Below, piece after piece: positions 2,794 through 43,816 of a DNA stretch of 64,000 nucleotides. The stretch is from a virus. The position numbers were made by a program, and so were the translations under genes. A model generated the notes under the pieces. It had not been told where the DNA came from, made no database searches, and saw nothing but the letters and a program-made list of their open reading frames with translations. Every line of letters starts with the position of its first letter. The stretch's first letter is position 1. The stretch spans positions 64,542 to 128,541 of IMG/VR virus record IMGVR_UViG_3300035663_000001. The stretch is one strand, 5' to 3'.

Positions 2794-3233
2794 AATATAA
2801 AAATAATAAATTGGGCGATATTTATTTACGTCTCGACCGACACATTGAAATAATTAAAGATCCTATTTTTGGTAAATTTTGTTACTATTATGATAATCTA
2901 ATTCATCGAGAAGATGGTCCCGCTATCCTATATTTGAATGGTGATAAAGCTTGGTTTCGCTATGGAGAGATTCATCGAGAAGATGGGCCGGCCATAGAAT
3001 ATGCTAGTGGAGAAAAACAATGGTGGTTTCAAGGACAATTGCATAGATCAAATGGTCCAGCTCTTATTGATAAGAAACGCAATTATACCGCCTGGTATTA
3101 TTTTGGTCTTCGCCATCGAGAAGATGGGCCAGCTGTTCAACATCATAATGGAGATAAAGAATTTTGGATTCAAAATAAAAAATATTCCGAAGCAGAATAT
3201 TGGCGGATGGTTAAATTAAAATCTTTATGGTAA
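2787..3233 (+). CDS. HREDGPA-repeat protein
   Basis: repeats; starts at ATG inside upstream TTATGGTAA. Confidence 0.85.
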   Translation: MVKYKNNKLGDIYLRLDRHIEIIKDPIFGKFCYYYDNLIHREDGPAILYLNGDKAWFRYGEIHREDGPAIEYASGEKQWWFQGQLHRSNGPALIDKKRNYTAWYYFGLRHREDGPAVQHHNGDKEFWIQNKKYSEAEYWRMVKLKSLW

Positions 3234-3558: not shown

Positions 3559-3948
3559 ATGCAAGAAATTAAAATAGATAAAGAAGGAACTAAAAGCTAC
3601 CATTATAATAGTCAATTACATCGAGAAGATGGTCCAGCGGTAGAATATAGTGATGGATCTAAAGAATGGTGGCGTCATGATCAACGCCATCGAGAAGATG
3701 GTCCAGCCGTAGTATGGATTGGTAGTAGTAAAAAATGGTATTATAATAATAAATTACATCGAGAAGACGGCCCAGCTGTAGAATGGTCTGATAGCAGTAA
3801 AGAATGGTGGCGTCATGGTCAACGCCATCGAGAAGATGGTCCAGCTATAGAGTATTTCTATGGAGAGAAAAACTGGTTTCTTCAAAATGAAGAAATAGAA
3901 TCAGAAGAAGAATATCGGCGTTTAGTTAAGTTGAAAGCTTTATGGTAA
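3559..3948 (+). CDS. HREDGPA-repeat protein
   Basis: MQEIK head, repeats, KLKALW tail. Confidence 0.85.
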   Translation: MQEIKIDKEGTKSYHYNSQLHREDGPAVEYSDGSKEWWRHDQRHREDGPAVVWIGSSKKWYYNNKLHREDGPAVEWSDSSKEWWRHGQRHREDGPAIEYFYGEKNWFLQNEEIESEEEYRRLVKLKALW

Positions 3949-28394: not shown

Positions 28395-29948
28395 ATGGCT
28401 TCCAAGAAATTATTCAACTCTAAATCTACTGTCGCAGCACCTGTCACCAATACTACTAATAATGCCGGAGGATCAGCTTATGCCATGTCAGATAAGGCAG
28501 CCCTGGCTCAATTAGCCATGACCGGCTGTTTTAATGGCACCTATTATGTATCAGCCGAACATCAATTAGAAAAAGTTATCGAGTTGGCTAATAAATTGAG
28601 CCCCAAGTATGTAGCCAAGTTAGCAGTGTATTCTCGTCAACAAGGTTTAATGAAAGATATGCCAGCTGTCTTAGCAGCGGTAGTGGCTGGTAAAGATTCA
28701 GCGCTTTTATCACGAATCTTTCCTCAAGTTATTGATAGTCCCAAAATGTTGCGGAACTTTGTTCAAGTACTCCGTTCCGGAGTGACTGGTCGTAAATCCT
28801 TAGGTACCCGCCCGAAGAAATTAATCCAACAATATTTAGCATCCTTAACAGATGAGCAGCTGTTTAACGCCGATGTGGGCCAAGATCCATCATTAAAAGA
28901 CATCATTAAGATGGTGCATCCTAAACCAAATAGCGAATCTCGTTCAGCTTTATATGGATATCTTCTAGATAAGAAATATAATCCTCAGCACTTATGTCAA
29001 CTAGCAAAGCAGTTTGAACTTTTTAAAAAGGAAATGGGATCAGAAATACCAGACGTTCCATTTCAAATGTTAACACAGTTGCCATTGACTGACAGTCATT
29101 GGAAGCAAATTGCAGCTAATGCCACTTGGACCCAAACTCGATTGAATCTCAATACTTTTGAGCGTCATGGCGTTTTTAAAGATGCCAAACTGACGCAACT
29201 TCTGGCCAATAAATTGCAAGATGCACACCAAGTTGAGAAAGCGAAAGTGTTCCCGTATCAGTTATTTACTGCTTTCAAAAATATGAACTCAACGATTCCT
29301 TCTTCGGTCTCTATCGCTTTGCAACAAGCAGCCGAGATTTCGATGGAAAATATCCCTACCTTTCCAGGTCAAGTATATGTTATGGTTGATACTTCTGGCT
29401 CTATGAGTTCTCCGGTGACAGGTCATCGAGGCAGTGTTACTAGTAAAATGCGATGTATTGATGTCGCAGCTTTAGTCGCAGCAGCCATTATGCGAAAGAA
29501 TCCTAATGCCGAAATTATTCCTTTTGATACTCAAGTTCATTCCCATCGATTGAATCCATGGGATTCTGTCATGACTAATGCTCAGAAATTATCTAATTTT
29601 GGTGGAGGTGGAACGGATTGTTCAATTGCTTTGCGTCATCTTAATAATACACAGGCTTCCGGAGACCTAGTTATCTATGTCTCCGATAATGAATCTTGGG
29701 TAGATCCGACTCGTTATCGGAGTACCGCAACCATGGCTGAATGGGTTAAATTTAAGTCGCGTAATAAAAATGCTAAACTGGTCTGTATTGATGTTACTCC
29801 TAATGGTACTGTGCAAGCTAGTGATGGCAATGCCATTTTAAATATTGGCGGGTTTTCTGATTCGGTCTTTGAAGTAATTGCTAAATTTACGGAATTAGGA
29901 AATCACAAAGATCTGTGGATTAATACCATAGAATCAGTGGAGATATAA
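28395..29948 (+). CDS. rsr: Ro60/Rsr RNA-binding protein (TROVE + vWA)
   Basis: NNAGGSAY, LAQLAMTG, RKSLGTRPK, RLNLNTFERHG, VFPYQL, DTSGSM, GGGTD, SDNESW. Confidence 0.9.
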   Translation: MASKKLFNSKSTVAAPVTNTTNNAGGSAYAMSDKAALAQLAMTGCFNGTYYVSAEHQLEKVIELANKLSPKYVAKLAVYSRQQGLMKDMPAVLAAVVAGKDSALLSRIFPQVIDSPKMLRNFVQVLRSGVTGRKSLGTRPKKLIQQYLASLTDEQLFNADVGQDPSLKDIIKMVHPKPNSESRSALYGYLLDKKYNPQHLCQLAKQFELFKKEMGSEIPDVPFQMLTQLPLTDSHWKQIAANATWTQTRLNLNTFERHGVFKDAKLTQLLANKLQDAHQVEKAKVFPYQLFTAFKNMNSTIPSSVSIALQQAAEISMENIPTFPGQVYVMVDTSGSMSSPVTGHRGSVTSKMRCIDVAALVAAAIMRKNPNAEIIPFDTQVHSHRLNPWDSVMTNAQKLSNFGGGGTDCSIALRHLNNTQASGDLVIYVSDNESWVDPTRYRSTATMAEWVKFKSRNKNAKLVCIDVTPNGTVQASDGNAILNIGGFSDSVFEVIAKFTELGNHKDLWINTIESVEI

Positions 29949-32054: not shown

Positions 32055-32957
32055 ATGGAACTATCTGACGATGAATTGATAAATATCATACATGCAGCTA
32101 CTTGCAAATCCGATCTAGCTAGAAAATTAGGATTTACTTACTTTAATGGTAAAGTTTGGAAATCGATTCAGCAAATAATTGATCGACTACAAGTTTCTAC
32201 ACAACATTTTGATGCAACAGCAACTCGTCGTTCTCAAAGAACTCACGATCGGACGACAAAATCTTGTCCGATTTGTTTTAATAGTTTTTCTACTCTTTCT
32301 AAAAATAGAAAGATAACCTGTTCTTATTCTTGTGCTAATCGTTTCTTTAAGAAACGAGTCTCTACTATTTCTAGTAGATTAAAAAAATCTCATACTTTAT
32401 TAAAGTTACATGGTTCCACTAAACGTACAACCATACTTAATGGTGAAGTACAGTATACCTTAAATTGTCAAGTATGTAACAAAGAATTCTTTTCAGGCAA
32501 ATCAATTACTAAAACTTGTTCTCCAGATTGTTTGTGTTATTTAAAAAATAATCCGTCTCCATTGACTAGGCAAAAAATTTCTCAAGCTATTAAGAAAAGA
32601 GTAGCGTTAGGTATTCATCCTGGCTGGGCCACTCGGAATAAATTGATTCCGTCATATCCAGAAAAATATGTAGCCTCCATTTTAGATGAATTGAATGTTA
32701 ATTATATTAGGGAATTAAAGGTGAATAAATGGTTTATTGATTTTACAATTCCTGATTCTAAAATTGCATTAGAGGTAGATGGCAAGCAACATAATCTTCC
32801 AGAAAGAAAAAAGTCTGATTTCAATAAAGATACCTACCTATCTCAAGTAGGATGGCAAGTGCATCGAATTCCCTGGACTGGGATTAGAAATCTAGAAGAT
32901 AGAGAAAAGTTATTGAATCAAATAAAATCCTTAATTCCATTAAATACTGGAAACTAG
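32055..32957 (+). CDS. homing-type endonuclease, DUF559/Vsr-like PD-(D/E)xK with Zn fingers
   Basis: SYPEK, FIDF...ALEVDGKQH; CxxC motifs; sits between tRNAs. Confidence 0.75.
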   Translation: MELSDDELINIIHAATCKSDLARKLGFTYFNGKVWKSIQQIIDRLQVSTQHFDATATRRSQRTHDRTTKSCPICFNSFSTLSKNRKITCSYSCANRFFKKRVSTISSRLKKSHTLLKLHGSTKRTTILNGEVQYTLNCQVCNKEFFSGKSITKTCSPDCLCYLKNNPSPLTRQKISQAIKKRVALGIHPGWATRNKLIPSYPEKYVASILDELNVNYIRELKVNKWFIDFTIPDSKIALEVDGKQHNLPERKKSDFNKDTYLSQVGWQVHRIPWTGIRNLEDREKLLNQIKSLIPLNTGN

Positions 32958-32984
32958 AATGTCTAATTATAATCTAATAAATAT

Positions 32985-33060
32985 GGTCCTATCTTCTAAT
33001 GGTTAAGATGAAAGACTTTCAATCTTTTAATGTCGAGTTCGATTCTCACTAGGATCGCCA
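32985..33060 (+). tRNA. tRNA-Glu(TTC)
   Basis: cloverleaf, AAAGA-CTTTCAA-TCTTT, GCCA end. Confidence 0.85.
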
Positions 33061-33064
33061 ATAA

Positions 33065-33140
33065 GCAACTATAGTGTTTAATGATAGCATTCCTGACTTC
33101 CACTCAGAGGGTGTGGGTTTGAATCCCACTAGTTGCTCCA
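33065..33140 (+). tRNA. tRNA-Gly(TCC)
   Basis: GCAACTA/TAGTTGC, loop CTTCCAC, TCCA end. Confidence 0.85.
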
Positions 33141-33155
33141 AATTTTAAATATTAT

Positions 33156-33232
33156 CGGGAGCAGGGAGGAAGGGTGTTCCTCGGAGTTCTTATAAAGCTC
33201 TAAAACGGGTTCAAGTCCCGATGTCCCGACCA
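33156..33232 (+). tRNA. atypical tRNA with TAT anticodon (nominally Ile)
   Basis: GGAGTT-CTTATAA-AGCTCT arm, 6-bp D stem, CGGG-TTCAAGT-CCCG, ACCA. Confidence 0.65.
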
Positions 33233-33252
33233 TGTCATCTCAAATGACAAAT

Positions 33253-33283
33253 AATGGAAGCTAGAATCCTTAAATATCTAGAC
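33253..33283 (+). repeat. 31-nt dispersed structured motif AATGGAAGCTAGAATCCTTAAATATCTAGAC (copy 1 of 5)
   Basis: also at 34083, 34341, 58652, 61248. Confidence 0.75.
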
Positions 33284-33326
33284 AAAGCGGGTAAATAATA
33301 AAACAAATACTTAAAGAAGTAAATAT

Positions 33327-33412
33327 GGCCTAGTGGCGGAATGGCAGACGCGCCTGACTTAAGATCAGGTACCCTTTCGGGTGTGGGGGTTCAAGTCCCT
33401 CCTGGGCTACTA
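33327..33412 (+). tRNA. tRNA-Leu(TAA)
   Basis: GGCGGAATGGCAGACGC D arm, CT-TAA-GA, long variable arm; ends CTA rather than CCA. Confidence 0.9.
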
Positions 33413-33480
33413 AATGTGATGAATGCATTTATGGATTACATTAGGATAAAAATCTATAAAAATTTTAGTCATCACATTTA
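33411..33480 (+). ncRNA. Y-RNA-like hairpin RNA 1
   Basis: 12-bp closing stem; TGAATGC...GATTACAT...AATTTTAGTCA; three copies near Ro60 gene. Confidence 0.55.
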
Positions 33481-33487
33481 TTTTTAA

Positions 33488-33961
33488 ATGGCTAAATCGA
33501 AAATATCAGATCTCGAGTTTATCGAGTTAGTTAATCGCTCTACCTCTATTGCAGAGGTATTACTAGCACAAAACTTAACTCCGGCTGGAGGAAATTATAA
33601 ATCCTTCTATGCTAGAATCAAACGATTACAAGTATCCCTTGACCATTTTACTGGTCAAGGTCATTTACAAGGGAAGACGCATTCTTGGAATGCTAAGATT
33701 CCACTGTCAGAAATCTTAGTAGAAAATAGTAACTTTAATACCTATCATCTCAAAAATAGATTATTGAAGGAGAAAATACTCAATTATCGTTGTAGTCAGT
33801 GTGGGATTGTTGATTGGCAAGGTAAACCAATTTCTTTACATTTAGATCATATTGATGGTAATAATACCAATCACTCTCTCTCTAATTTAAGAATATTGTG
33901 TCCTAATTGTCATTCGCAAACTCCAACTTATTGTGTTAAAAAACAGATGTTAAATATCTAG
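33488..33961 (+). CDS. HNH endonuclease
   Basis: CSQC...LHLDHIDGNNTN...NLRILCPNCH. Confidence 0.9.
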   Translation: MAKSKISDLEFIELVNRSTSIAEVLLAQNLTPAGGNYKSFYARIKRLQVSLDHFTGQGHLQGKTHSWNAKIPLSEILVENSNFNTYHLKNRLLKEKILNYRCSQCGIVDWQGKPISLHLDHIDGNNTNHSLSNLRILCPNCHSQTPTYCVKKQMLNI

Positions 33962-33974
33962 AACAGTAAAATAT

Positions 33975-34060
33975 GGCCTAGTGGCGGAATGGCAGACGCA
34001 CCTAACTCAAGATTAGGTACCTTTTCGGGTGTGGGGGTTCAAGTCCCTCCTGGGCTACCA
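33975..34060 (+). tRNA. tRNA-Leu(CAA)
   Basis: near-duplicate of Leu(TAA), loop CT-CAA-GA, ACCA. Confidence 0.9.
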
Positions 34061-34082
34061 TCATCCATCTTGGATGATAAAT

Positions 34083-34113
34083 AATGGAAGCTAGAATCCT
34101 TAAATATCTAGAC
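34083..34113 (+). repeat. 31-nt structured motif (copy 2)
   Basis: identical to 33253. Confidence 0.75.
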
Positions 34114-34189
34114 GACTACTAAGTGCGATGAAAGCCTTTATTGCTCCATTAGTGGAGACAGACTACACGATATCTATTGAATAGATTAT

Positions 34190-34265
34190 TCTACTTTAGC
34201 TCAGCGGTAGTAGCAGCGGCCTGTTAAGCCGTGGGTCCCAGGTTCAAATCCTGGAAGTAGAGCAA
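34190..34265 (+). tRNA. tRNA-Asn(GTT)
   Basis: TCTACTT/AAGTAGA, GCGGC-CTGTTAA-GCCGT. Confidence 0.9.
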
Positions 34266-34340
34266 GTATATAGTGAATGCCGTAATTGATTACATTTAAT
34301 TGGATAAAAACATCAATTACAATTTTTGTCATTATATATT
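34265..34340 (+). ncRNA. Y-RNA-like hairpin RNA 2
   Basis: TGAATGCC-GTAATTGAT..GATTACAT..ATCAATTAC-AATTTTTGTCA. Confidence 0.55.
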
Positions 34341-34371
34341 AATGGAAGCTAGAATCCCTAAATATCTAGAC
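34341..34371 (+). repeat. 31-nt structured motif (copy 3)
   Basis: one mismatch to 33253. Confidence 0.75.
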
Positions 34372-34372
34372 A

Positions 34373-34453
34373 GGCAGCTGTCTTGCCAATAGAGATAGAT
34401 TTTTAATCTCTTAAAAGAAGACTAAAGCCGATCGTAACGGCTAGTTGGCGCCA
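34373..34453 (+). ncRNA. tRNA-like RNA (acceptor + T arm + CCA, no canonical anticodon arm)
   Basis: AGCCG-ATCGTAA-CGGCT arm followed by AGTTGGC-GCCA. Confidence 0.4.
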
Positions 34454-34466
34454 TTTTAAAATTAAA

Positions 34467-34531
34467 TATAATGAATGCCGTAATTGATTACATCGGATTA
34501 AATTATATCAATTACAATTTTTGTCATTATA
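34467..34531 (+). ncRNA. Y-RNA-like hairpin RNA 3
   Basis: near-copy of RNA 2 with different apical loop. Confidence 0.55.
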
Positions 34532-34567
34532 GTTATTAACTATATTTGAAAATATAGCTTATCATAA

Positions 34568-34641
34568 GCTAACGTAGCTCAATGGTAGAGCCCTGTTTTG
34601 TAAACAGGCGGTTGGCGGTTCGAGTCCGTTCGTTAGCTCCA
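34568..34641 (+). tRNA. tRNA-Thr(TGT)
   Basis: GCTAACG/CGTTAGC, CCTGT-TTTGTAA-ACAGG, TCCA. Confidence 0.85.
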
Positions 34642-34660
34642 GATATTAAATATTTTTAAT

Positions 34661-34707
34661 CGGCCATTCGTACAAAAGTTAAGTGTCACTGTCTGATAAG
34701 CAGTAGA
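34661..34707 (+). tRNA. tRNA-Ile(GAT), 5' part, interrupted by IS607
   Basis: CGGCCAT acceptor strand, D arm, ACTGT-CTGATAA-GCAGT; 3' part at 36637. Confidence 0.85.
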
Positions 34708-34733
34708 GTTAACATAAATATATAAAAATATAT

Positions 34734-35993
34734 TTAGTTTTTGTTTGTGCCAGGGACTCTAAGCTCCTGACCAGTATTATCAAATAAACCTTCTGATTTC
34801 CAATAGAAACTAGATAGTTTCGATAAATACTGCCGAAAATAAAATCGTATTTCAGGAAGATCTATTTCATGATTAAGTGCCGCATTTAAATCTGCATCTA
34901 TATGCAACTTGCACTCTTTACATTTATATTCCTTACCTTTGCGATTTGCTTTTCGTACTATTCCGCATCCAGAACATCTCTGAGACCGATATGGACTGGA
35001 TTGTAGATTCAGTTGGACCCCAACCTCTTCTAAAACTTTTGTTATTTTATTATGAATTAAAAGATTGCTCCAAGCAGACATTTTTCTGCTAGTTCTTTTT
35101 CCTCGTTTAATATCATACACATGTTCAAGATTGACTTGACCAATATCTTTCCAATTTAATTGGTTAATGGACCAATTAATAAAATTCATTCTATGATCCT
35201 GAGCTTTATTAAAAGCTTTTGATCCTTTTTTCTTTTTGGCAATTTTATTGCAAATAGAATCTAAAGAATGACCATGATTATCTTTCTCTGGAGTTTTATG
35301 CCCATTAGATAAAGTAAGAGCTGTTTTTAATCCAGTATCTCCTCCAACAGTTTTTCCGACCTTTTTAGTGGGAACTGGAACTTCATATCTTAATTGAATA
35401 CAATTTTCTTTGATTAAAACTCCTGCCAATCTTTTTCCAGATGAAGAAATCCATTTCTGGTCTTGTTTGTGATATTTTATAGGAATTTTAACAATATCAA
35501 AACCAGTTCCATACAACTTAATAAACAAGTTAAAGTGATTTGAACTTTCTCGTATTTCTATTTGTTTTTGAGACAGCTCTGCTTGAAAATTTGATCCAAT
35601 AATTGGTTTTGTAAGTTTTAATTTTTCAAGTTTTGATTCCCAATAATTGGAAGACTTATTCTCTTCTTTTCTTTTTTTAATAATATATAATATTTTATTT
35701 CTAATCGATACCCTGCCTTTAACGATTCCAATTGCTTGGGATAAGGCCGCAGAAAGAGCCCTGGCAGATAATTTATCATGACTTATTATTTTATAATCTA
35801 AAAATTTTGGAAGAAATAATAAATCGTCATTAATGCTCCAAATGATTCTTCCATTATGATCTAATAATTTGTTTGACCAAATGTAATCAATATAAGACTG
35901 AACTGCAAATCGATATTCTTTCAAGAAAGAAGAAATTATTTCTTTTTTTCCAGAATTACAATCTTGCAGATAGTGTTTCGTAGATCTAATCAC
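34734..35993 (-). CDS. tnpB: TnpB RNA-guided nuclease
   Basis: RuvC GGDTG, NLE, DADLNAA; CSGC/CKEC Zn finger. Confidence 0.9.
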   Translation of the reverse strand: MIRSTKHYLQDCNSGKKEIISSFLKEYRFAVQSYIDYIWSNKLLDHNGRIIWSINDDLLFLPKFLDYKIISHDKLSARALSAALSQAIGIVKGRVSIRNKILYIIKKRKEENKSSNYWESKLEKLKLTKPIIGSNFQAELSQKQIEIRESSNHFNLFIKLYGTGFDIVKIPIKYHKQDQKWISSSGKRLAGVLIKENCIQLRYEVPVPTKKVGKTVGGDTGLKTALTLSNGHKTPEKDNHGHSLDSICNKIAKKKKGSKAFNKAQDHRMNFINWSINQLNWKDIGQVNLEHVYDIKRGKRTSRKMSAWSNLLIHNKITKVLEEVGVQLNLQSSPYRSQRCSGCGIVRKANRKGKEYKCKECKLHIDADLNAALNHEIDLPEIRFYFRQYLSKLSSFYWKSEGLFDNTGQELRVPGTNKN

Positions 35994-36567
35994 TAGATTC
36001 CTCTAATGTTTTTTTAATTGCTTTTACTTTTTTAGCGCCTCTTCGTAATCCATATAGTCGACAACAAAAGGAAGTAATTATTGCAATTAAATCTTTAATT
36101 AGATCGTTTTCATCTTCTTTATCTCTGTTGATAACAACTAGATGATATCCCAGAATATTTAACAGTCTATCTAGGTAATTAAATCCAAATCTTGTTAATC
36201 TATCTTTATGTTCTACTACAATTCTTTTAGGCTCGGAATTTAATAAAAGATTTAATTGCTTTCTATTATCATTCATTCCAGAAGCAATTTCTTTATAAAC
36301 TTTCTCTACTTCCCAGCCGTTGGCAGTACAAAATTGTAAACATCTTTCTATTTGTCTATTTAAATCATCTTTCTTATTGGAAGAAGATACTCTGCAATAA
36401 ACATAGGTTTTTAATGATTGATTATTTTTAACTACTGAATCTTCTTCTACTAAAATAGTTCCAGATGACAGCTGGATAACTTTTCCTGGCAACTGACCTT
36501 TTTTAAAAAGGTTAAATGCTGTCTGATAAGTTAATCCATTCTTTTTTGCCCATTGAGATAGTTTCAT
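35986..36567 (-). CDS. tnpA: IS607 serine recombinase TnpA
   Basis: MKLSQWAK HTH, YCRVSS, EIASG, EHKDRLTRFGF, FCCRLYGLR. Confidence 0.95.
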   Translation of the reverse strand: MKLSQWAKKNGLTYQTAFNLFKKGQLPGKVIQLSSGTILVEEDSVVKNNQSLKTYVYCRVSSSNKKDDLNRQIERCLQFCTANGWEVEKVYKEIASGMNDNRKQLNLLLNSEPKRIVVEHKDRLTRFGFNYLDRLLNILGYHLVVINRDKEDENDLIKDLIAIITSFCCRLYGLRRGAKKVKAIKKTLEESSD

Positions 36568-36636
36568 TCATTTATATGAAATTATATTAGTATAAATTTA
36601 CATAAAATTATACATTTTAAATAAAATGTCTATAGA

Positions 36637-36665
36637 CGATGGAGCGTTACCATCATGGCCGACCA
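36637..36665 (+). tRNA. tRNA-Ile(GAT), 3' part
   Basis: GATGG-AGCGTTA-CCATC T arm, ATGGCCG-ACCA pairing with 34661. Confidence 0.85.
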
Positions 36666-36689
36666 CACTTTTCAGAAAGCAAGATTATG

Positions 36690-36904
36690 GCACATAAGAT
36701 ATTTATGGCGCTCTTCATCGAGAAGATGGTCCAGCATTAGAAGGAGCCAATGGATATAAGGCTTGGTATCGTAATGATCAACGGCATCGAATAGATGGGC
36801 CGGCCATAGAACATGCTGATGGTAGAAAAAGTTTTTACCTAGCAGGCGATCACTATTCTGAAGAAGAGTATTGGCGAATAGTTAAGCTAAAAGCTTTATG
36901 GTAA
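36690..36904 (+). pseudogene. 5'-damaged HREDGPA-repeat gene
   Basis: two repeats and KLKALW tail, but no in-frame start (TAA upstream). Confidence 0.7.
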
Positions 36905-36907
36905 AGT

Positions 36908-37291
36908 ATGCAAGAAATTATAGATATAATTGGTACTAAATTTTATTATTGTAATGGAGATCTTCATCGGGAAGATGGTCCGGCTATAGAATATATAAAT
37001 GGCGATAAAGCTTGGTGGATTCGCGGTCAACGCCACCGAGAAGATGGTCCCGCAGTAGAATATGTTAATGGAGATAAATGTTGGTATTTTTATGGCCAGT
37101 ACCATCGAGAAGGTGGGCCAGCCGTAGAGGTTTATAATGGAGATAAATCTTGGTGGATTTATGGTCAACTCCATCGAGAAGATGGTCCAGCAGTAGAATA
37201 TGCTGATGGAGAGAAACGATGGTTTCTTCAAGATAAAGAATACTCTGAAGAAGAATATTGGCGAGTAGTCAAGTTAAAAACTTTATGGTAA
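36908..37291 (+). CDS. HREDGPA-repeat protein
   Basis: repeats and tail. Confidence 0.85.
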   Translation: MQEIIDIIGTKFYYCNGDLHREDGPAIEYINGDKAWWIRGQRHREDGPAVEYVNGDKCWYFYGQYHREGGPAVEVYNGDKSWWIYGQLHREDGPAVEYADGEKRWFLQDKEYSEEEYWRVVKLKTLW

Positions 37292-42763: not shown

Positions 42764-43816
42764 ATGATGAGATATACCTATTATCCTAATATTTTTACCG
42801 ATGAAACAGCTTTATCCTTTTATTTTTTGGGATTGTACATTACGGATGGTAATGTATATCTGAAGCATGGATATGAGGTTTCCATCAAATCAATTGATGT
42901 GTCCTTATTGCACGCTATTGCTAAGTTAGTATGCCCTACTAAATCGCTAGTCAAAATTAAAAATTCTAATTGTTTTAAATTAAGTTTTAATTGCCAAGCG
43001 ATTGCTGAGTGGTTAGTCTCTTATGGTTGCGTCCCGAATAAAACTAAAATAGTCAAGTTTCCAACTATACCAGAAAAATATTATCCAGATTTGATTCGAG
43101 GGTTATTAGATGGAGATGGAAGCATTGGATTTTACAAATCTCCGATGATTAGATTTGACTCGGCATCCTTCCATTTAATTAATGGAGTCAAAGATTATCT
43201 TAATTCAACTTTAGGTTTTACTCTTTCTCTCAAGGAAACGCCTTGGATTACTACCACTATTAATGGTCAAGCAGCTAGTTCTACTACTCAAATGTATAGG
43301 CTATCTATCGTAAATTTGAATGCATATAAATTATTAAAACATATTTATTATCAACCAGATTGTTTTAGTTTAGATAGAAAGAAGGCTCAAGCTTTTGAAA
43401 TTATTAACCATTATGAGTCTCGTTGGTCGCCAGACAAGTTATTAAGTTTTAATAAGTTGCCTATTAAAGATTGGCCAGGTGATCAGGAATTATTTAATTT
43501 AGTTTGTTCTTATCACGGATCGTTTAAGTTGACGGCTCAGCATTTGAATGTGTCGGCTTGGGGATTAGTTTCTAGATTAAGAAAAATTGGTTATTATCAA
43601 CAATTAAAAACCCTGTATCCCGTAGAGAGGGCTAAAAATTTTAACGGGTTTAGGAAGCCTAAAATGGTTAGCGAATCCTTGATTCAAGAGATTGACTCTT
43701 TGTTTGAGCATTTAACTCATCGGCAAATTGCGGAGAAATTCTCTCTTAAAGAGAGTTATGTGGCTTTTTTGAAAAGAGATAGTAATAAAAGAAATGTAAT
43801 TGACCATGAACAATAA
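42764..43816 (+). CDS. LAGLIDADG-family homing endonuclease
   Basis: YFLGLYITDG and LIRGLLDGDG motifs. Confidence 0.85.
   Translation: MMRYTYYPNIFTDETALSFYFLGLYITDGNVYLKHGYEVSIKSIDVSLLHAIAKLVCPTKSLVKIKNSNCFKLSFNCQAIAEWLVSYGCVPNKTKIVKFPTIPEKYYPDLIRGLLDGDGSIGFYKSPMIRFDSASFHLINGVKDYLNSTLGFTLSLKETPWITTTINGQAASSTTQMYRLSIVNLNAYKLLKHIYYQPDCFSLDRKKAQAFEIINHYESRWSPDKLLSFNKLPIKDWPGDQELFNLVCSYHGSFKLTAQHLNVSAWGLVSRLRKIGYYQQLKTLYPVERAKNFNGFRKPKMVSESLIQEIDSLFEHLTHRQIAEKFSLKESYVAFLKRDSNKRNVIDHEQ

Follow-up and report, generated by a model that had tools for sequence, protein, structure and literature searches.

What happens when a transposon that encodes an RNA-guided nuclease lands inside a phage tRNA gene, and would the insertion itself aim that nuclease at unbroken copies of the gene? 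The question is raised by an IS607-family element, carrying genes for the serine recombinase TnpA and for TnpB, that splits a tRNA-Ile(GAT) gene in the IMG/VR virus record IMGVR_UViG_3300035663_000001. The window analysed here is the 64,000-nt stretch comprising bases 64542–128541 of this 128.5-kb record, whose completeness is 28% by CheckV; positions are those of the window unless a contig is named, and the features are collected in Table 1. We consider it probable that the locus represents an active-looking IS607 insertion, equipped with both TnpA and TnpB, at a GTCT motif that falls within the variable loop of a tRNA-Ile(GAU) gene, accessory and non-canonical, in the tRNA island of a lake-water phage of the ~450-kb class. 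Guide-directed cutting and homing would follow by analogy with the characterised systems CboIStron, ISXfa1 and ISFba1.

The tRNA gene is interrupted at the border between its anticodon stem and its variable loop. When positions 34708–36636 are deleted in silico, ARAGORN calls a 76-nt tRNA-Ile(gat) whose acceptor stem has 7 bp and whose anticodon and T stems have 5 bp each, with a CTGATAA anticodon loop and a CCA end, arranged as a 7/4/5/5 cloverleaf. Of 6000 random 1929-bp deletions placed across the 128.5-kb record, 1 produced a tRNA call over the joint. The call is a weak one, passing the default (100%) threshold and failing at 105%, and the tRNA-Glu and tRNA-Gly genes of the window behave alike. 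Since the joint falls in the flexible variable loop, many nearby joints also pass ARAGORN, which by itself does not fix the position to the base. Canonical tRNAs have a T-Psi-C-R-A sequence in the T loop and a D loop with G18 and G19. The rejoined molecule is non-canonical in both places, with the T loop AGCGTTA and the D loop AAAAGTTAA, which contains one G; the T loops of the other seven tRNAs in the window are standard, GTT(C/T)RA. An Rfam search of positions 32800–37200 at E ≤ 1 returned six tRNAs and one weak plastid match, and no match for the two split halves.

An unbroken counterpart occurs in G005, the closest relative by its Ro60 protein (74%), as a 75-nt tRNA-Ile(gat) at 1000–1074 on the minus strand of contig L149, inside a tRNA island. 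This ortholog shares the T arm, the D loop, C1 and A73-CCA with the window tRNA and is 87% identical to its 3′ part across 39 nt, while the acceptor, T and anticodon stems carry compensatory changes. Judged by its sequence, the split tRNA-Ile is a real gene. The intact tRNA was not found in the records of nine other relatives, several of which are fragments. A third phage record contains a tRNA-like gene with a CAT anticodon and the same T arm (L156, ~770–850), at which ARAGORN makes no call. Since both the intact ortholog and this CAT-anticodon relative share the T arm, the AGCGTTA loop is a lineage trait and not decay that followed the insertion.

The three genes form a small family of non-canonical tRNA-like sequences with the T arm (G/A)ATGGAGCGTTACCAT(C/T), two with a GAT and one with a CAT anticodon. 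This family, with its AGCGTTA loop, may be a more unusual object than the insertion itself.

To the base, the ends of the element are fixed by its relatives, which were retrieved from viral contigs by a search with a TnpB alignment; a single-TnpB query of the same contigs returned no relative. Close copies stand in other sequence contexts on L002, L059 and L060 (identical to L061), with TnpB 71% identical to that of the window, and on L065, where a C-terminal part only is 93% identical. The copies on L002, L059 and L060 are ~95% alike among themselves and occupy three separate sites. Homology by blastn to these three contigs and to L065 stops at 34705 and 36637, which defines the termini, and four full copies each measure exactly 1933 nt with zero indels. 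Read in the direction of the element, every left junction consists of the flank followed by GTCT and every right junction of GTTAACTCT followed by the flank; the four left and five right flanks are all different. The close subfamily occupies five independent insertion sites. TAGA (TCTA on the strand of the element) is present at both junctions of the window element (34704–34707 and 36633–36636), as the initial annotation reported. Its use there as the shared core stands in part: TCT is the only sequence common to both junctions across the relatives, so the fourth base is a coincidence, and with a TCT core at both junctions the insertion amounts to 1929–1930 bp.

The wider clade shares a right-end layout. 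The alignment of right ends, A3, contains 46 of the 52 listed and the window's own; it omits L011, L029, L081, the second L044 site, L017 and L076 as doubtful, shortened or near-duplicate. In these 47 right ends AACT is invariant, and the next two bases are lineage-specific (CT, GT, CC, AT or GC). GTCT directly precedes the left end in nine of nine CT-core elements with a located tnpA.

A scarless joint, in which one GTCT is kept and the flanks are joined, was applied to the relatives as well. The flanks of the L059 element (1043–1647 and 3577–3853) rejoin a thymidylate synthase matching profile positions 1–175 and 177–265 of 266, which the element splits in the sense direction within the conserved stretch FLG-LPFNIASY, between G and L. 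Those of the L002 element rejoin into one frame of 629 codons. On L063, which carries a CT-core element with a TnpB of 46% identity, a tRNA-Glu(ttc) is split in its D arm at GTCT, again in the sense direction (~1048–1060 and 2999–3060). Joined without gain or loss, the flanks restore the two genes and the open frame, and the scarless-joint model holds beyond the window. The proposal made from the window's letters, that an IS607 element sits exactly inside tRNA-Ile(GAT), is therefore borne out by the ARAGORN call at the deletion joint and by the ends that the relatives define; it had been said to fall if the joined sequence did not score as a tRNA, and ARAGORN scores it as tRNA-Ile(gat) at the default threshold.

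Both genes of the element are open reading frames, with tnpB directly downstream of tnpA on the same strand, as is typical of IS607. TnpA scores 190.1 bits against NF033518, the IS607 transposase equivalog (cut-off 110), and its PDB matches are the catalytic domains of the ISC1926 and IS1535 TnpA proteins (E 1e-28 to 3e-24). TnpB scores 47.9 bits against PF07282, the Pfam TNB domain (cut-off 26.3), has 1069 homologs at E ≤ 0.001, and aligns in its C-terminal part with solved Cas12f/TnpB-like chains. Its RuvC residues D219, E323 and D366/D368 and the zinc-finger cysteines C340, C343, C358 and C361, which form two CxxC pairs, are invariant among 29 aligned TnpBs. These open frames and invariant residues agree with the initial annotation, which had described both genes as intact, including the RuvC D/E/D residues. 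A nuclease-dead TnpB was considered and rejected on the same invariance.

Other family traits are also present: the target site is not duplicated, the two junctions share a brief identical core, and a terminal inverted repeat is lacking, since among 84 inverted pairs the 25 longest include none that links the termini. The trait of the majority, a GG end with a G-rich site, is absent, the right end reading TAACT-CT and the left junction GTCT. Most IS607 members end in GG, and the TAMs (transposon-adjacent motifs) tested are G-rich (PMC13565253; G-rich TAMs also in PMC11061315). The window element belongs to the IS607 family and has a core other than GG.

The right end has a common order across the 47 relatives: a hairpin inside tnpB, a variable hairpin, (T/C/A)AACT, and the two lineage-specific bases. 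By RNAalifold, the hairpin in the 3′ end of tnpB has nine predicted pairs, three of which are kept through two-sided changes in 19–24 of the 47 sequences. By RNAfold, a second hairpin closes just ahead of (T/C/A)AACT in most of the 47, with differing sequences (mean z −1.7; z < −1.5 in 22 of 47). We presume that the two hairpins belong to the scaffold of an omega-RNA that would extend across the right end into the tRNA gene.

Where scaffold would give way to guide can be judged from characterised relatives. In two tested IS607 TnpBs the core dinucleotide is part of the RNA scaffold (10.1101/2023.11.20.567912; PMC10711439), and in ISXfa1 the fixed flanking base likewise belongs to it (PMC10711439). 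In CboIStron the scaffold ends in UCGG, and the 4-nt target motif of TnpA is also the TAM of TnpB, TGGG (10.1101/2023.11.20.567912). On this basis the guide is most likely the reverse complement of 34685–34704, starting at 34704, and GTCT is likely to be both target motif and TAM. The initial annotation had already drawn the guide from the right-end flank, which is indeed antisense to the anticodon arm; the likely start moves ~3 nt deeper, because the tested IS607 TnpBs place the core in the scaffold. The first 16 nt of the predicted guide have no other match at ≤ 2 mismatches in the 128.5-kb record, and AACTCT stands directly before their sole perfect match.

The 12-nt sequence CTGTCTGATAAG occurs twice as an exact direct repeat, once in the anticodon arm, where it is part of the predicted target (34689–34700), and once in the 5′ coding region of tnpA at its TYQTA motif (36519–36530). 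It is probably a chance occurrence in 2.1 kb of AT-rich DNA.

From these parts we propose the following course of events. Insertion antisense to the tRNA would inactivate the tRNA-Ile gene, and TnpA would excise the element scarlessly by crossover within the shared TCT core. Transcription across the right end would yield an omega-RNA with a scaffold ending in ...UAACUCU and a guide made of the next ~16–20 nt, the reverse complement of 34685–34704. TnpB could then cut unbroken, GTCT-flanked copies of the tRNA, whether at the freshly excised donor site or in the genome of a conspecific phage in the same cell. The occupied site would escape cutting, since its target is preceded by CTCT and not by GTCT. 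With the occupied copy serving as template for recombinational repair, the element would be reinstalled, and both homing and retention could result.

A close published parallel in layout is CboIStron (10.1101/2023.11.20.567912), in which a serine recombinase is likewise followed by TnpB, insertion duplicates no target sequence and the two junctions carry one short core. In both systems the core forms part of a 4-nt motif at the left junction (TGGG in CboIStron, GTCT in the window), and the right end is one base away from that motif: UCGG versus TGGG in the former, CTCT versus GTCT in the latter. Cleavage of the donor joint would be expected here as well. The window element differs in that it is without a group I intron, has a core of CT or TC and not GG, is borne by a phage, and lies antisense in a tRNA target.

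ISXfa1 and ISFba1 (PMC10711439; PMC11061315) produce a right-end RNA of ~150 nt that overlaps the 3′ end of the gene, as is predicted here, with the fixed junction base or bases in the scaffold and a TnpB that combines a D-E-D RuvC center with a zinc finger. Unlike the present element, they have G-rich TAMs (GGG, AGGAG, GAGGG). ISFba1 uses a RAGATH-18 RNA, for which Rfam gives no match here at E ≤ 1, and in further distinction from both, the TnpB of the window scores only 29 bits against NF038280.

In its ecology the element would resemble T4 SegB and other homing endonucleases that stand alone in the tRNA regions of phages (PMC13565253): a tRNA island would harbour a selfish nuclease gene whose product cleaves the competing allele in a co-infecting phage, whereupon the gene is copied in. 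SegB, by contrast, recognises its site by means of the protein itself and interrupts no tRNA gene, whereas here a transposon, by prediction, would be guided by RNA. Transmission of elements of this kind to co-infecting phages has already been framed as "non-restorative homing", in a review that cites T4 SegB as a phage tRNA-region nuclease (PMC13565253). Homing into co-infecting phages would be the ordinary expectation for a TnpB, and the idea is published; the mechanism proposed is a known one and opens no new one. What the locus offers is a clean natural case in which the insertion itself would aim an RNA-guided transposon nuclease at a phage tRNA gene, with exact ends, motif and intact ortholog known, together with a testable prediction of a GTCT TAM for an IS607 branch that lacks the usual GG core.

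Several points weigh against an active, homing element. The CT end departs from the GG of most IS607 members, so that the border between scaffold and guide, taken from GG elements, is an assumption; the GTCT TAM is read off the junctions alone, and the omega-RNA and its 3′ end are predictions only. TnpB stays under the NCBIfam cut-offs, with 61 bits against 100 for NF040570 (guided_TnpB) and 29 bits against 350 for NF038280 (IS607_TnpB), and for this reason we regard it as a divergent TnpB. The sole intact ortholog found has AGAA in place of the window's AGAC and hence no GTCT at its site, and its anticodon stem differs as well; it is on both counts neither an empty site of the element nor a likely target.

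The remaining objections come from contigs (depth 2–6) of runs X9, X11, X12 and X13, which were mapped on the window. No contig listed bridges the right junction in these four runs. Contigs of X9 and X11 end at 34700–34711, a few bases from the junction, and X12 and X13 have zero depth in 34670–34886. AT-rich sequence and a branch in the assembly graph are both possible causes, and we read the stops and the zero depth as low coverage of a strongly AT-rich region and not as an empty allele. The initial annotation had looked to empty-site and circle junctions for support: none of the 15 joints listed out of 60 in the four runs is the empty-site joint 34707 to 36637, and no circle junction was seen among them.

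These absences would suit a dead-end insertion, in which the element hit a dispensable tRNA and merely persists without excision or homing, for example because it is host-derived and silent during infection. We regard this as unlikely, yet as a possibility to be taken seriously. It agrees with the way the subfamily disrupts a thymidylate synthase and another open reading frame, as an ordinary insertion sequence would, and with the failure to find TnpB in any of the five relatives searched, although an empty answer is itself uninformative in that search. Against it stand the intact genes with all of their catalytic residues, the conserved structure of the right end, and the recent mobility shown by the 93%-identical L065 copy elsewhere and by the three ~95%-alike copies at three more sites.

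The initial annotation had also raised an excision-controlled switch, by which regulated TnpA excision would restore tRNA-Ile when the phage needs it. Scarless excision would indeed regenerate a gene whose ortholog stays intact in a relative, and yet we find no support for a switch and hold it to be very improbable: no restored allele is among the contigs and joints listed for the four runs, the gene once restored would presumably be cut by the element's own TnpB, further copies lie in protein genes where no such logic applies, and only two of 55 right ends in the clade have a tRNA location.

That a functional tRNA still arises from the two halves, through trans joining or IStron-like splicing, is hardly credible; the stems of both are undamaged, but the element lies antisense to the tRNA, open reading frames occupy all but ~100 nt of it, and Rfam finds over the range already given no group I intron and no family other than tRNA, the same three observations on which we rejected membership among the IStrons. 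It is just as implausible that the assembler joined element and tRNA halves into a chimera: the unbridged right junction would allow it, but contigs bridge the left junction in three of the four runs, all sampled words of the stretch are contained in three runs (possibly the source runs) and fractions of 0.68–0.93 of them in seven others, an identical protein occurs on five contigs, and both flanks fit one tRNA that has an existing ortholog. The bridged left junction and the words found in the seven other runs also speak for a stable insertion.

Returning to the active, guide-carrying insertion that we favour, we considered whether its choice of target is shared. Two of 55 right ends in the clade, those of the window element and of L063, split a tRNA, and four of 55, the window included, have a tRNA within 300 nt downstream; excluded from this count are a second call on L063 and those on L013, in which the joint is crossed by 8–12 nt only or the left end lies within tnpA. 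Targeting of tRNA genes is not a rule, because the subfamily also splits a thymidylate synthase and a 629-codon frame. We take landing in tRNA genes as a hint of recurrence, and two of 55 are too few to judge whether they are hit in excess. On L013 (4785–4873), 15 nt separate the right end of another element of the clade from the 3′ end of a tRNA-Lys encoded on the other strand; the element adjoins that gene and is not inside it.

We speculate, with considerable doubt, that the tRNA genes of very large phages could be a recurrent niche for IS607-TnpB homing. The elements would then act in RNA-guided gene drive or marker exclusion between phages, as a counterpart of SegB, and would constitute a CT-core, GTCT-TAM branch of IS607 specialised for phage genomes, perhaps an uncharacterised one, though no literature search was aimed at CT-core elements. 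If that were true, the niche would offer tRNA sequences common to co-infecting relatives, with single accessory tRNAs being dispensable.

Table 1. Positions in the window of the split tRNA gene, the inserted element and the predicted parts of its right end
Feature	Position	Strand	Basis or remark
Split tRNA-Ile(GAT), 5′ part	34661..34707	+	Acceptor 5′ strand, D arm, anticodon arm, first variable-loop bases; whole length aligns with ortholog L149:1000-1074(-)
Predicted guide template, 20 nt of flank at the right end (antisense strand of the anticodon arm)	34685..34704	-	Right-end layout and IS607 TnpB papers
IS607-family element	34705..36637	-	1933 bp, GTCT to ...TAACTCT; single-copy in the record
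Right-end terminal motif TAACT with core dinucleotide CT	34705..34711	-	Family-wide alignment
AT-rich terminal hairpin, presumed omega-RNA scaffold	34716..34735	-	RNAfold
tnpB, 419 aa, GTG start	34734..35993	-	Overlaps tnpA by 8 nt; PF07282
Hairpin in tnpB 3′ coding end (GQELRVP), presumed omega-RNA stem	34749..34772	-	RNAalifold on A3
tnpA, 193-aa serine recombinase	35986..36567	-	PF00239; NF033518
Left end	36568..36637	-	Junction motif GTCT at 36634-36637; 36637 shared with tRNA 3′ part
Split tRNA-Ile, 3′ part	36637..36665	+	Last variable-loop base, T arm (loop AGCGTTA), acceptor 3′ strand, A73, CCA

The runs that contain the window stretch are labelled as lake-water or freshwater metagenomes. 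Relatives retrieved with the nearby Ro60 gene (67–74% amino-acid identity) include records of 433–448 kb rated 97–100% complete, and the phage is therefore placed in the ~450-kb class. The 128.5-kb record contains no other tRNA-Ile. By blastn against a phage collection, the flank matched only tRNAs and an HNH gene, and the element gave a single match of 389 nt, in a 636-kb uncultured phage. Neither a 23-mer from the anticodon arm nor a 24-mer from the T arm had an exact match in the viral contigs, a scan from which the window's own record was possibly excluded.

Further nuclease genes of homing type lie in or near the tRNA island: an HNH endonuclease gene between tRNAs at 33488–33961, with an oppositely oriented homolog in L149, and farther along, at 42764–43816, a gene with a LAGLIDADG domain. 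Upstream of the island, at 28395–29948, is the Ro60 gene (TROVE and vWA domains), which is 67–74% conserved in ten viral records (L139–L148); downstream of Ro60, 6–17 tRNA genes follow in all eight records with enough downstream DNA.

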